64,000 bases of DNA from a bacterium (GTDB lineage: Archaea > Thermoplasmatota > E2 > JACPAO01 > JAHFTW01): contig JAZJZE010000001.1 of assembly GCA_040390065.1 (NCBI GenBank), positions 357,769 to 421,768 on the forward strand, in the 5' to 3' direction. The notes under the pieces were generated by a model. The model had not been told where the DNA came from. It ran no database searches and was given only the letters and a program-made list of their open reading frames with translations. This document shows positions 23,141-43,871 of this stretch, one piece after another. A program made the position numbers and the translations under genes. Position 1 is the stretch's first letter. Each line of letters begins with the position of its first letter.

Positions 23141-23141
23141 G

Positions 23142-23224
23142 CGCCGAGGGCAGGATTTGAACCTGCAAATCCAGGGGACACTGGTTTTCGAGACCAGCGC
23201 AATACCGGGTTATGCGACCTCGGC
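23142..23224 (-). tRNA. tRNA-Ser(CGA)
   Basis: GCCGAGG...CTGGT-CTCGAAA-ACCAG, long variable arm, GTTCAAATC, CCTCGGC-G. Confidence 0.93.
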
Positions 23225-23640
23225 AGGTAAGTCGGCCGACTTGTGGCCGCTATTTCCAGGTTTCGTGCCGTGCGAGCGCGACGCGCGAGCCATCAGGGGG
23301 TCGCGGGGGGCGGTAAGCCCCCCCGCAGGTCCGCGGGGCCGCAGGCCCCGCTGCCCAAATGATCGACCTGTTTGCAGGTCGAGGGACACTGGTTTTCGAG
23401 ACCAGCGCAATACCGGGTTATGCGACCTCGGCAGGTAAGTCGGCCGACTTGTGGCCGCTATTTCCAGGTTTCGTGCCGTGCGAGCGCGACGCGCGAGCCA
23501 TCAGGGGGTCGCGGGGGGCGGTAAGCCCCCCCGCAGGTCCGCGGGGCCGCAGGCCCCGCTGCCCAAATGATCGACCTGTTTGCAGGTCGAGGGACACTGG
23601 TTTTCGAGACCAGCGCAATACCGGGTCATGCGACCTCGGC
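23175..23640 (-). repeat. 208-bp tandem repeat: 3 copies of the tRNA-Ser 5' 50 nt separated by 2 identical 158-bp hairpin cassettes
   Basis: GGGACACTGG...CGACCTCGGC starts at 23175, 23383 and 23591; third copy carries one SNP. Confidence 0.95.
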
Positions 23641-23745
23641 AGAAGGGCGCTGGGGCGGAGGCCAGGGCTCGCCTATATTCCCATTTCGAGGGGCCGCAGG
23701 TCGACCCACCCAAACCTCATGTGGGCGGCGCCGATAGGATACGCC

Positions 23746-41277: not shown

Positions 41278-42870
41278 ATGGCAGACACGGAGAAACGCAG
41301 TTCCCTCTACGCACTGGAGCCCCTCATCAAGAGGTGGCCTGCGGTCACGAAGCCTGAGGGTCACGTCTCGTTCAAGACGAAGCTCCTCTGGACGACCATT
41401 TGTCTCCTGCTGTACTTCGCGCTGTCGAACATCCCGCTCTTCGGGGTGTCGAACCAGCAGCTCGACATCTTTGCGAGCTTCCGCGCCGTCTTGGCCGGCC
41501 AGTCCGGCACTTTGATGCACCTGGGCATCGGCCCCATCGTCACCGGGTCCATCGTGATGCAGCTCTTCACGGGCGCCAAGATCATCAAGCTCGACCTCAC
41601 GAAGGACGAGGACAAGGCGATCTACCAGGGCGCCCAGAAGATCATGGTCCTGCTGTTCATCTTCATCGAAGCCATCCCGCAAGTGTACGGCTTCCTCAAC
41701 CCGGACCCGAAGTTCATCTCCTGGTTTGGCAGCCACAACATCGGCGGCGGCGAGGCCTGGTCCCGCAGTGTCATCATCGCGCAGTTGGCTCTCGGCGCCA
41801 TCATCGTCTTCCTGATGGACGAACTCATCTCCAAGTGGGGTATCGGTTCGGGCATTTCGCTCTTCATCGCGGCCGGTGTGAGCCAGTCGCTGTTCCAAGG
41901 CACCTTGTCTTGGCAGCCGTCGAACGCGGGCCTTGGCAACCACTACAACCCCATCACGAACCCGCCCGTCGGGGCCATTCCCATGGCGGGATACGTGTTC
42001 TGGAACCGTGACTTGCAAAGCATGGTGCATGGGCAAGGCTTCGAGAACGTCTTCATCGGCGGCGGCAACTTCCCCAACCCACTCATCGCCTTCTTCGGCA
42101 CGATCATGATCTTCATGTTCGTGGTCTACGCGGAAGCAAGCCGCATCGAGTTGCCCCTCGCGCACGGCAAGGTCCGCGGCGCCCGCGGCCGCTACCCGCT
42201 GCGCCTCATCTACGCCTCGAACATCCCGGTCATCCTGATGGCCGCGCTGCTCGCGAACATCAACATCTTCAGCCTGCTTCTCTGGCAGCACCCAACGTTC
42301 AGTCACATCCCCGGCATCGGCCACTCCTGGTGGGTCGGCACGTACGAGACCGGCGGCGGCTCGACGCAGCCCATCGCCGGCGGCGCCTGGTACCTGCAGC
42401 AGTTCCGAGGATTGTCCGATTGGTTCCTGCCCCTGTTCGACCCGCGCTACAGTGGGCTTGCCCACGGCCACGTGTGGTGGCAGATCCTCATCAAGATCAC
42501 GTTGTTCCTGGGCCTCTTCATCGGCGGCTCCATCATGTTCGCCAAGTTCTGGGTCGACACGACGAACATGGGCCCCCATGACGTGGCCAAGCAGATCGAG
42601 AAATCCGGCATGCAGATTCCCGGCTTCCGCCGTGACCCGCGCGTGCTGGAGAAGGTCCTCGAACGCTACATTCCAACTCTTACCATCATCGGTGGTGCGA
42701 CGGTCGGTGCTCTGGCAGCCGTTGCCGACATGATCGGTACCGTCGGCCAGGCGTCCGGTACTGGATTGCTGCTCTGCGTCGGCATTTTCATGAGGATGTA
42801 CGAGCAGATTGCGAAGGAACAGGTCATGGAAATGCACCCCGTGCTCCGTGGCTTCTTCGGCGCGGAATAG
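41278..42870 (+). CDS. secY: Preprotein translocase subunit SecY
   Basis: LGIGPIVT, KWGIGSGISLFI, YASNIP, QIPGFR, GTGLLL. Confidence 0.97.
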   Translation: MADTEKRSSLYALEPLIKRWPAVTKPEGHVSFKTKLLWTTICLLLYFALSNIPLFGVSNQQLDIFASFRAVLAGQSGTLMHLGIGPIVTGSIVMQLFTGAKIIKLDLTKDEDKAIYQGAQKIMVLLFIFIEAIPQVYGFLNPDPKFISWFGSHNIGGGEAWSRSVIIAQLALGAIIVFLMDELISKWGIGSGISLFIAAGVSQSLFQGTLSWQPSNAGLGNHYNPITNPPVGAIPMAGYVFWNRDLQSMVHGQGFENVFIGGGNFPNPLIAFFGTIMIFMFVVYAEASRIELPLAHGKVRGARGRYPLRLIYASNIPVILMAALLANINIFSLLLWQHPTFSHIPGIGHSWWVGTYETGGGSTQPIAGGAWYLQQFRGLSDWFLPLFDPRYSGLAHGHVWWQILIKITLFLGLFIGGSIMFAKFWVDTTNMGPHDVAKQIEKSGMQIPGFRRDPRVLEKVLERYIPTLTIIGGATVGALAAVADMIGTVGQASGTGLLLCVGIFMRMYEQIAKEQVMEMHPVLRGFFGAE

Positions 42871-43248
42871 CGCGCAGCGCGTTCCGCCGACGGGAGCCGG
42901 AGCCGGGCGCATCCAGGCCAGGTTCCCGCAATGTGCTCGCAGCGAGGCCCGCAGGGCCGAGCGGACCTACGGCTGCGCCTCAGCGCGGCCGTAGGGCACG
43001 AAGGGCGACGCCGCAGCGTCGCCCGACAGCAGATTGCGAAGGAACAGGTCATGGAGATGCATCCGGTTCTGCGCGGCTTCTTCGGGGCCGAATAGCGCGC
43101 AGCGCTTCGGCCTTCGAAGGCCGTGCAGAACAGCGCGCCCGAGCGATGCGAAGCGAGCGTGGGCAAGCGGACCCTGCGGTTGCGCTTCAGCGCGACCGCA
43201 GGGGTGGCGAGCGACGCCGCAGCGTCGCGAGCCGTGCTCCGTGGCTTC
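42803..43248 (+). repeat. secY 3'-end duplications interleaved with two homologous hairpin cassettes
   Basis: 42803-42880 repeated at 43028-43105 (8 synonymous differences); CCGTGCTCCGTGGCTTC at 42839 and 43232. Confidence 0.9.
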
Positions 43249-43298
43249 ACCCGACCCTGCGCAACATTCAGGAAAGCCCGGGTTGGTCAGGCGAAACC

Positions 43299-43871
43299 TT
43301 GTCGGCCCTCAACGTCGGCCAGCCCCGCCGCTCGTACGCCCACCCCGAGCCCTACCAGCGGTACCGCCAGCCCCTGCAGGCCAAGTGGAGGCCATTCATC
43401 CTGGAGCGTGACAAACGGCGCTGCCGCGTGTGCGGTGGCCGGGACGACTTGGAGATGGCGCACATCACGGATGCCGTCGCGTTCGTCCGCGCCGCCGGGT
43501 CGCACCGCGGCGTGACCTTCTCCTACCGCTGGGACAACCTCATGACGCTCTGCGATGGGTGCCACGCCGTGAGCCATTCGCATCGATGGAGGGCGGAGGA
43601 CGTGCCCCGCCGGGAGGCCGTGGCCGCGCTCCAGGAACAATTGCGCGGGCTGCGCGGTTGGTCGTCGCCGTTTGCGGTCTTGCCCCCTGCCCTCGTCCCA
43701 CCCGCCATGGCACCGCGCCGCAGCTTCCACGACACCATCCGGCTGTCGCCGCTGCTGCCCTTCCCGACCTTCGCCCGTTACGCCGCGGATGGCGGGCTCG
43801 TATTCGGGGATGCGGAGGCCTCTCCCGGGCAAGGCCATCTTCCCCTAGTGGCCGGGCCCTCGGGCTTTTGA
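43299..43871 (+). CDS. HNH endonuclease
   Basis: ILERDKRRCRVCG...LEMAHI...DNLMTLCDGCH; TTG start inferred (frame open from 42933). Confidence 0.85.
   Translation: MSALNVGQPRRSYAHPEPYQRYRQPLQAKWRPFILERDKRRCRVCGGRDDLEMAHITDAVAFVRAAGSHRGVTFSYRWDNLMTLCDGCHAVSHSHRWRAEDVPRREAVAALQEQLRGLRGWSSPFAVLPPALVPPAMAPRRSFHDTIRLSPLLPFPTFARYAADGGLVFGDAEASPGQGHLPLVAGPSGF

Follow-up and report, generated by a model that had tools for sequence, protein, structure and literature searches.

The doubled 3' end of an archaeal secY gene as a probable trace of miniature non-coding cassettes that replace gene ends

In a 64,000-nt stretch of a Thermoplasmatota genome (hereafter, the window), the last part of the secY gene is found a second time a short distance downstream, and the question arises which of the two copies was there originally and how the other one came to lie beside it. 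The gene (41278-42870; here and below all features are on the plus strand), defined by its ORF and translation, encodes 530 amino acids, and its product matches the NCBIfam SecY model NF006341 (E=1e-102, 344.8 bits at a cut-off of 300); the genes of ribosomal proteins L30 and L15 are situated upstream. A repeat search yields two copies of 78 nt, 225 nt apart and 90% identical. Copy 1 (42803-42880) is the working secY end with the stop codon at 42868-42870 followed by 10 nt, and copy 2 (43028-43105) is a displaced secY end with the stop codon at 43093-43095, so that the stop codon and the next 10 bases are retained in both.

The initial 28 nt of the copies are identical, and the eight differences (positions 42831, 42837, 42840, 42843, 42846, 42849, 42861 and 42864; A/G, C/T, C/G, G/T, C/G, T/C, C/G and G/C, respectively) all fall in the third codon position in the secY frame. 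The 21 codons compared contain 8 synonymous and 0 non-synonymous differences; were the differences distributed randomly over codon positions, the probability of this pattern would be (1/3)^8, or about 1.5e-4. The 78-nt copies, their eight exclusively synonymous third-position differences and the identical 28-nt opening block, all listed in the preliminary description, are thus confirmed. Absent from that description was copy 3 (43232-43248), the oldest displaced secY piece, identical to 42839-42855 and cut after 17 nt. In a low-depth contig from the same sample secY-like letters continue beyond 43248, with a loose end there. A separate assembly (a Logan contig of 12,254 nt, depth 13.5, possibly from the source sample) covers 42300-43700 with 0 differences, hence the arrangement is not an artefact of one assembler; as the pattern also recurs in other genomes, an assembly artefact was ruled out.

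The inserts at secY, 206 and 225 nt long, are made of repeats and hairpins. Unit 1 has copy 1 as its sense arm, and thus includes the final 68 nt of the secY coding sequence. Right after the stop there is an apex mini-hairpin (42870-42880; a 4-bp stem with a 3-nt loop in both RNA and DNA folds), which is the turning point to the antisense arm (42881-42943), an imperfect antisense copy of 42801-42880 with 59 matches in the local alignment with the secY end. The region of both arms (42796-42945) has a predicted RNA folding energy of -87.3 kcal/mol (z = -6.1; for DNA, z = -4.5). Then follow hairpin P1 (42946-42958; 5 bp, 3-nt loop, seen in folds and in the alignment), the conserved motif GAGCGGACC with hairpin P2 (together 42959-42995; P2 arms 42966-42978 and 42983-42995), and hairpin P3 (43003-43024; 9 bp, loop CGCA), which abuts copy 2. 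The first 18 nt of copy 2 pair with 42922-42937, forming stem S0, and the fold predicted for 42915-43045 is a four-way junction (z = -6.2 for RNA and -6.7 for DNA).

The older unit 2 uses the last approximately 45 nt of copy 2 as its sense arm. Its antisense arm (43106-43131) is complementary to 43066-43095 of copy 2 (z = -4.0 for the fold of 43015-43135, containing the arms), and its hairpin module (43163-43230) comprises P2 (43172-43185 with 43190-43203) and P3 (43211-43228). A covariance-type model, R1, has its best match at this module (61.5 bits) and scores 55.3 bits at the P2 region of unit 1 (42959-42995), covariation being detected as well. An Rfam scan of 42600-43400 at E up to 10 yielded chance-level matches alone, far below gathering scores. 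The plus strand is predicted to fold at -49.2 kcal/mol versus -42.0 kcal/mol for the minus strand, which is suggestive of a strand preference of unit folding.

We conclude that the doubled secY end probably records two insertion events, one after the other, of a non-coding miniature cassette that integrates site-specifically. Such a cassette would contain a coding-competent target end, a turning hairpin, an imperfect antisense copy and a hairpin block (two or three GC-rich hairpins). The cassette copy is now the working secY end, and the resident end has been pushed downstream, behind the hairpin block; from the oldest to the youngest, the order is copy 3, unit 2, unit 1.

Could the same arrangement have arisen without any mobility? 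If replication switched templates at small hairpins, a local sense-antisense-sense triplication would form beside pre-existing extragenic palindromes; tandem-inversion-duplication, to which this scenario belongs, is a known rearrangement type. The observed order of sense, antisense and sense segments is the one expected from it, and hairpins are present at both turning points, that is, the hairpin with the 3-nt loop after the stop and the hairpin block. In this case, however, newly made copies should start out identical, with random decay of whichever is not in use, whereas the observed differences are synonymous only. The antisense arm would not be expected to track one copy only, but that of unit 1 sides with copy 1 against copy 2 at all four differing sites that are informative. 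Moreover, the hairpin block contains no secY sequence and recurs in conserved form at different loci and in different genomes, and the start point varies between genomes at one and the same gene. We therefore consider template switching distinctly improbable. The earlier suggestion that the gene end had been replaced by a foreign allele is, vice versa, supported by the same agreement of the antisense arm with copy 1, by the coding sequence preserved in both copies, and by the same architecture with synonymous-only differences at many other genes.

Indeed, secY is only one case of a family of non-coding units of approximately 100-225 nt, arranged in the order: sense copy of a gene or tRNA end, mini-hairpin, imperfect antisense copy, and a block of two or three GC-rich hairpins directly abutting the displaced older copy. 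In this genome units flank at least 12 protein-gene ends, and for these 12 ends (187 codons) we observed 66 synonymous versus 8 non-synonymous differences. A partial copy is present at most 700 nt away for 23 of the 52 tRNAs, the nearest copy of at least 16 nt being 88-208 nt off; such copies are often tandem, and some units replace the 5' side of the tRNA.

With the unit set defined from direct repeats alone, the displaced copy is preceded, at a distance of at most 12 nt, by the end of a strong hairpin in 22 of 44 units, compared to 4.9% of 1499 random positions. The best antisense match begins within 2 nt of the first base of the repeat in 20 of 41 non-redundant units, whereas among 1624 mismatched body/target pairs this is so for 16.7% (binomial p 2e-6). 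In the P2 hairpin 95.8% of cells are paired versus 73.3% in shuffles (0 of 500 shuffles reach the observed value), although the R1 seed hairpins had been selected by a hairpin finder and the pairedness is partly built in; cells with changes on both sides number 30 versus 11.1 expected.

The affinity of the antisense arm could be compared for the upstream and the displaced copies. Among the 12 protein units the scores (upstream vs displaced) are 48 vs 36 at secY, 33 vs 10 at C1:326693, 27 vs 17 at C3:89852, 28 vs 16 at C5:75132, 19 vs 16 at C5:87488 and 24 vs 23 at C5:300020; three more units are tied, and in another three the displaced copy is ahead by one point. When all 43 units are counted, the arm is nearer to the upstream copy in 16 and to the displaced copy in 16, with 11 ties, the tRNA copies being mostly identical and hence uninformative in this respect. 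In the unit common to genomes G000 and G004, a synonymous G/A difference in the working copy is matched by C/T in the antisense arm. The mismatches of the arms comprise mainly transversions (116, compared to 30 of the wobble type and 14 of the A-C type), which points to weak selection for arm-wide pairing. Like the folding energies of the two strands, the excess of the wobble type over the A-C type is no more than suggestive of a strand preference.

The preliminary description had proposed the 28-bp block as an att-like core. It is a putative core at secY, and other units lack such a block: in the KH-type gene end at C1:326693, 7 of 8 codons differ from the displaced copy and the shared block comprises at most a few nucleotides, and at secY itself the displaced piece starts 24-66 nt ahead of the stop, depending on the genome. 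As a junction-identical block is not a general feature, the units are not easily reconciled either with an ordinary integrase core or with simple homologous recombination.

Alternatively, the units could be decayed stumps of large integrative elements, viruses or plasmids with an integrase of their own, which left behind arrays of att sites, similarly to cis-mobilizable elements built by accretion. The genome does contain six tyrosine recombinases, the only classical recombinases detected in it (at 89% completeness), and a 12.5-kb island at a tRNA-Lys gene, whose integrase is adjacent to the tRNA and which has a 17-nt tRNA end in displaced position. A scan for displaced C-termini at 0.45-15 kb yielded eight rows, two of which are gene-carrying insertions (643 and 835 nt) with the same gene-end duplication, and the DNA downstream of secY also varies from genome to genome. 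On the other hand, random deletions would produce a broad range of spacings, whereas the observed 88-208 nt is tight, and one ordered architecture recurs at unrelated targets. The classical island at tRNA-Lys is followed by a small unit at this same target, as the cassette reading would have it. The ends of the island have, as judged by eye, neither an antisense arm nor an R1-type hairpin, and exact tandem copies (208 nt twice and 120 nt three times) suggest recent amplification of a small unit. Hence, an origin of the units as decayed stumps seems unlikely. None of the eight rows of the scan contains a recognisable recombinase, the 129-aa ORF found in the scan of gene-carrying insertions has no family match, and the Phage_integrase matches nearest to the secY units are on other contigs.

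Another possibility is homing directed by a guide: the hairpin block together with the target piece, or the antisense segment as an "address", would guide a nuclease, to which the recoded end would be immune. The antisense segment has its anchor precisely at the junction, and an HNH-like ORF (43299-43871) is located 200 nt downstream, outside the units, with the HNH part of IscB as its best NCBIfam match (26.6 bits, well below the cut-off of 175). In the sample of the class, neither this gene nor the R1 module is found outside family f1. But the 28 nt following the junction are the same in both secY copies and would confer no immunity there, and the TnpB domain and the Y1 transposase were not found in the genome (89% complete). 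As a single-copy gene, the HNH-like ORF keeps its place beside secY in 10 relatives, with or without units; it is present in 24 of 31 other f1 genomes and does not track the R1 module (both in 16 genomes, R1 alone in 4, the HNH-like gene alone in 8, neither in 3). Guide-directed homing is thus very unlikely, and the escape from a sequence-specific nuclease, suggested earlier, finds no support, given the identical junction-adjacent bases, the lack of TnpB domain matches and the unit-independent HNH-like neighbour. A free-standing HNH homing endonuclease was likewise rejected, this gene being a conserved single-copy neighbour of secY rather than patchy inserted DNA.

The end of secY also differs from the rest of the gene in codon usage. 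In 30-codon windows GC3 is 0.63 and 0.60 at codons 451-495 (42628-42762) and 0.77-1.00 in all others; the synonymous difference from 11 relatives reaches 0.56 at codons 451-480, the highest window value across all 12 genomes, compared to approximately 0.13-0.45 over the remaining gene. In codons 451-507, 27 of 54 degenerate codons depart from the genus majority (28/139, 33/129 and 32/137 in the three earlier thirds of secY), and of these 27 departures 12 are C>T and two G>A changes at position 3. The fraction of A/T-ending codons in the 60 codons preceding the repeat is 0.29; a value of at least 0.28 at codons -80 to -20 is reached by only 1.7% of 718 long ORFs, taken as a measure of the end-of-gene variation in this genome. 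Thus, the codon shift noted in the preliminary description is real, but it starts at about 42628 rather than 42660. Since this stretch is situated upstream of the repeat, the present unit does not account for it. As a family feature, an excess of T-ending codons upstream was rejected: among 10 targets it was observed at secY (0.22) and C5:87488 (0.18) only. A/T-ending codons are also commoner in cassette-supplied ends (approximately 37 of 161), but gene ends are generally richer in them (mean 0.157 in the last 20 codons of 718 ORFs), and we read nothing into this enrichment.

All genomes compared are metagenome bins. Displaced secY ends occur in 8 of 20 loci of the taxonomic family, with at least three in one genome (G007). 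The R1 model matches 20 of 31 other f1 genomes and none of 119 genomes from nine other families of the class. In the contigs of one sample (those from two further runs of this study covering just scattered parts) no joint across the units was observed, nor did we see an excised form or an empty-filled pair from the same species.

The cassette is best read as non-autonomous and bringing its own allele of the gene end. Its mobile form would be either a small circle or folded single-stranded DNA, with the sequence of its closing stem equal to that of the chromosomal target at the exact insertion point. Insertion would then proceed by recombination at the foot of the closing stem, catalysed by a trans-acting enzyme, most likely a tyrosine recombinase, as at integron attC sites. 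Both copies would have been working gene ends in separate lineages before they met, which would explain why the differences are exclusively synonymous. It is also conceivable, but in our opinion somewhat unlikely, that the units are programmable insertion cassettes with an antisense "address" of 12-18 nt pairing with the first bases of their own copy of the gene end. In that case, the folded single-stranded cassette would present a double-stranded mimic of the target at the cut point, beside the hairpin block, to a recombinase reading structure, no sequence-specific att site would be needed, and a change in the arms would amount to retargeting. If true, such programmability would account for the ability of a single family to target tRNAs from either side as well as many unrelated protein genes, the gene being restored in every case.

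If the proposed cassette insertion is correct, essential genes of these archaea, among them secY, the gene of a ribosomal stalk protein and nearly half of the tRNA genes, carry ends derived from tiny selfish cassettes. Gene ends would then be mosaics of alleles from different lineages, distorting dS, codon-usage and phylogenetic analyses of marker genes, including secY. An element of approximately 100-225 nt would be capable of target-restoring site-specific insertion at many addresses, and its foldback and hairpin design would imply recombination dependent on structure and homology instead of a fixed att sequence, which would be of interest to genome engineering.

A word-matching search of open-access text revealed no description of such units, and several known classes were rejected. 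In a MITE the inverted repeat would be the ends of the element, whereas here it is target sequence, and in place of a short identical target-site duplication there are flanking copies of 17-78 nt with synonymous differences. Unlike in diversity-generating retroelements, the differences are not at adenines, and RVT_1 has no match in the genome. An IS200/IS605-derived element or a TnpB guide RNA was rejected, as Y1 transposase (PF01797) and TnpB (PF07282) had 0 matches with positive controls run (genome 89% complete). Searches of the genome for IS110 DEDD and Cas1 (casposase) also gave 0 matches; those for Viral_Rep (run without a positive control) and Y2_Tnp of IS91 (control below the cut-off) gave 0 as well and have little weight.

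The units share with target-regenerating integrative elements a working target accompanied by displaced direct copies (78 nt and 17 nt at secY), but have no integrase of their own. Phage 21 replaces the end of E. coli icd in the same way as prophage e14. The latter supplies a new 3' end to this housekeeping gene, the old C-terminal piece, icdC, being left at the far side, and the icd end differs from icdC mainly by synonymous changes (PMC13626634). However, e14 is a prophage of approximately 15 kb with its own recombination functions, whereas the secY inserts are non-coding, 206-225 nt long, carry an antisense gene end and a hairpin block, and belong to a family with dozens of targets. In tRNA and tmRNA islands of the Islander type, a regenerated target and a displaced direct fragment mark the ends (PMC4383910). 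The 12.5-kb island at tRNA-Lys is similar to these, but such islands are kilobases long and encode an integrase, while the units are 88-225 nt long and some are located at the 5' side of tRNAs.

CIMEs resemble the units in having att-like flanking repeats, no recombinase of their own and tandem arrays, but are not known to show either the foldback architecture or the multitude of targets. A CIME is the kilobase-sized remnant of a decayed ICE or IME and occupies a single site. REP/BIME palindromes are also many-copy GC-rich hairpins just 3' of genes; however, REPs neither carry nor displace gene ends, and a Y1 (RAYT-type) transposase was not found in this genome. Integron cassettes are small promoterless tandem units with a hairpin at the 3' edge, conserved in structure and variable in sequence, and the closing stem of attC needs the opening bases of the following unit to be complete. 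The units are not themselves integron cassettes with attC sites: the conserved R''/R' core (GTTRRRY) is absent from the consensus of alignment A1, there is no attI platform, the closing stem is target-specific and insertion is into gene ends. Nevertheless, the layout of the integron cassette, that is, the tandem arrangement, the hairpin at the 3' edge and the closing stem completed by the neighbour, matches that of the units described here.

The window lies at the end of the first contig (C1) of a 2.68-Mb genome bin (50 contigs, approximately 68% G+C). Its secY gene (41278-42870, plus strand; NCBIfam NF006341, E=1e-102, above the cut-off) is preceded by the genes for ribosomal proteins L30 and L15. 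A repeat search recovered the duplication of the secY 3' end claimed in the preliminary description, 42803-42880 (copy 1, the working end) matching 43028-43105 (copy 2) over 78 nt with 8 mismatches, and added a third, 17-nt copy at 43232-43248. All eight mismatches between copies 1 and 2 are synonymous and fall at third codon positions, again as described. The region 42300-43700 is covered without differences by one Logan contig, from what is possibly the source sample. A 180-nt contig of the same sample, of low depth (3.8), matches 43171-43248 with 7 changes and continues with secY-like sequence where copy 3 is cut in our genome, which points to a related strain whose third copy is more complete.

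The interval between copies 1 and 2 is structured. Just past the stop codon, at the end of copy 1, there is an apex hairpin (4-bp stem, 3-nt loop), followed by an antisense arm (42881-42943), which is an imperfect reverse complement of 42801-42880; the predicted fold of 42796-42945 has an energy of -87.3 kcal/mol (z -6.1). Then come hairpin P1 (42946-42958), the conserved motif GAGCGGACC with hairpin P2 (42966-42995), and hairpin P3 (43003-43024), after which copy 2 starts. In an alternative predicted fold, nucleotides 42922-42937, towards the 3' end of the antisense arm, pair with the initial 18 nt of copy 2, closing a four-way junction (z -6.2 as RNA, -6.7 as DNA). A second, older unit (43106-43231) repeats this order of parts, with a shorter antisense arm matching copy 2. 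At the sites differing between copies 1 and 2, the antisense arm of the first unit agrees with copy 1 (four of four informative sites), hence the sense arm, the antisense arm and the hairpins form a single unit. This unit provides the working secY end, with the older end sitting behind it.

Units of this kind form a family. The P2 hairpin was aligned over 16 segments, of which 10 belong to this genome and the other 6 to the secY loci of relatives, and compensatory changes were observed in 7 of 9 pairs; pairing reached 95.8% vs 73.3% in shuffles, a difference partly built in, as the seeds were chosen by a hairpin finder. A covariance model of the P2-containing module, R1, has 16 matches in this genome at E<=1. 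At E<=0.001 it is positive in 22 of 38 genomes of the order, all from the same family, f1; at E<=1e-4, matches occur in 20 of the 31 other genomes of this family and in none of 119 genomes from nine other families of the class.

Scanning the genome for C-terminal peptides recurring downstream ahead of a stop yielded 44 rows, of which 12 read as protein-gene ends, among them those of secY and of the KH-type, ribosomal stalk P1-like, acyl-CoA dehydrogenase-like and copper-protein-like genes. The other 32 were excluded as tRNA-linked repeats, their other frames or strands, internally repetitive proteins of contig C6, or low-complexity matches. Codon differences in the 12 ends are mainly synonymous (66 vs 8 non-synonymous over 187 codons), a ratio biased by the scan demanding near-identity of the last 8 residues. 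For units delimited by repeats alone, a strong hairpin ends no more than 12 nt from the displaced copy in 22 of 44 cases, vs 4.9% of random positions, and the best antisense match in the unit body starts within 2 nt of the first base of the repeat in 20 of 41, vs 16.7% of mismatched pairs (p 2e-6).

The tRNA genes show similar repeats, detected without recourse to hairpins. With aragorn and blastn-short, partial copies within 700 nt were found for 23 of 52 tRNAs (39 copies in total), counting tRNA-Tyr, which has two full genes, and one match of only 12 nt. Among matches of at least 16 nt, the nearest copy is 88-208 nt away; the copies are frequently exact tandems and occur on either flank of the tRNA. 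Within the window, a second example is found at tRNA-Ser(cga) (23141-23224, minus strand), with two exact 208-nt units. Past these, within 23141-23642, there is a third copy, a 52-nt partial one of the tRNA 5' half. Here, the displaced copy adjoins a hairpin of another module, with an 8-bp stem and a TTTG loop, which was also seen at tRNA-Met and at C5:78882. The tRNA-Leu(tag) array (C1:249835-250222) contains an assembly N run between repeated units. Arrays of this type are probably under-assembled in these bins, and therefore the unit counts are lower bounds.

Displaced secY ends were observed in 8 of 20 loci examined in the family (this genome, G000, and relatives G004, G001, G006, G007, G019, G022 and G020), beginning 24 to 66 nt ahead of the stop; in G007 there are three or more, which differ from one another in stop codon and in synonymous codon choice. 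Four members of the genus (G008, G005, G011, G012) show no displaced secY end. For 11 of 20 further R1 matches from relatives, the best direct repeat is spaced by 89-152 nt, and several of these matches lie at the KH-type and stalk-protein genes that are targets in our genome too. The KH-type unit is orthologous between G000 and G004: a synonymous change in the working copy has its counterpart in the antisense arm, and the displaced copy is conserved (1 change in 27 nt).

Upstream of the repeat, the described shift of secY towards A/T-ending codons is borne out. Codons 451-495 have a GC3 of 0.60-0.63, compared to 0.77-1.00 in the remaining windows, and the synonymous difference from 11 genus relatives in codons 451-480 (0.56) is the top window among all genomes compared. 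In codons 451-507 (42628-42798), 27 of 54 degenerate codons depart from the genus majority, including 12 third-position C>T and 2 G>A changes. Equal third-position A/T richness in codons -80 to -20 is seen in only 1.7% of 718 long ORFs, and of 10 genes bearing units, only 2 have the C>T-rich, strand-asymmetric pattern upstream. As a guess, this stretch could be a larger, older replacement, or could have come in through homologous recombination with an unsampled, lower-GC3 lineage.

The genome (89% complete) encodes six tyrosine recombinases; no Y1 transposase, TnpB domain, reverse transcriptase, IS110 transposase or Cas1 was found in it, nor a Y2 transposase (the Y2_Tnp control scored below its cut-off) or a viral Rep (searched with no positive control). 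A 309-aa tyrosine recombinase adjoins tRNA-Lys(ctt) in a classical 12.5-kb island (C4:105117-117855) with a displaced tRNA end of 17 nt, followed in turn by a small unit and another displaced end of the same target. The gene end is also duplicated around two insertions of 643 and 835 nt, situated between the end and its displaced copy (C9:136409-137239, locus L058, and C9:147620-148640). Each has one ORF, for a 129-aa protein without family and a lipoprotein-like protein, respectively, and the two insertions resemble variants of the same scheme that carry genes. A dispersed repeat of approximately 150-200 nt (C2:21050-21350, C17:31850-32150, C9:217881-218100) has the motif GCGAAGCGAGCGG in common with the units, with a different hairpin; one copy is directly upstream of an integrase gene (C2:19728-21002). 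Downstream of secY, a 190-aa ORF (43299-43871, plus strand) has weak HNH similarity, and its top NCBIfam match, to the HNH portion of IscB, scores far below the cut-off. It is single-copy, adjoins secY in 10 relatives, and is present in 24 of the 31 other genomes of the family and essentially absent outside it. As it does not co-vary with R1 within the family, we regard it as a neighbour.

The observations fit a miniature integrative cassette bringing with it an allele of the end of its target. In that case, both copies would be coding-like because each served as the working end in some lineage, and tandem arrays would arise because every insertion regenerates the target. Integron attC sites and CTX phage suggest, by analogy, that the cassette may act in folded form, through a single-strand intermediate, with a tyrosine recombinase as the putative enzyme. 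The model does not explain why some targets lack the identity block, and it accounts neither for the low-GC3 stretch of secY nor for the conservation of the displaced KH-type copy in G000 and G004.

Word matching in the open-access literature revealed no account of units like these. The closest known case is prophage e14 in icd, where the icdC pseudogene carries synonymous differences (PMC13626634); next come tRNA islands (PMC4383910) and cis-mobilizable elements. None of the three is a foldback unit of 100-225 nt.
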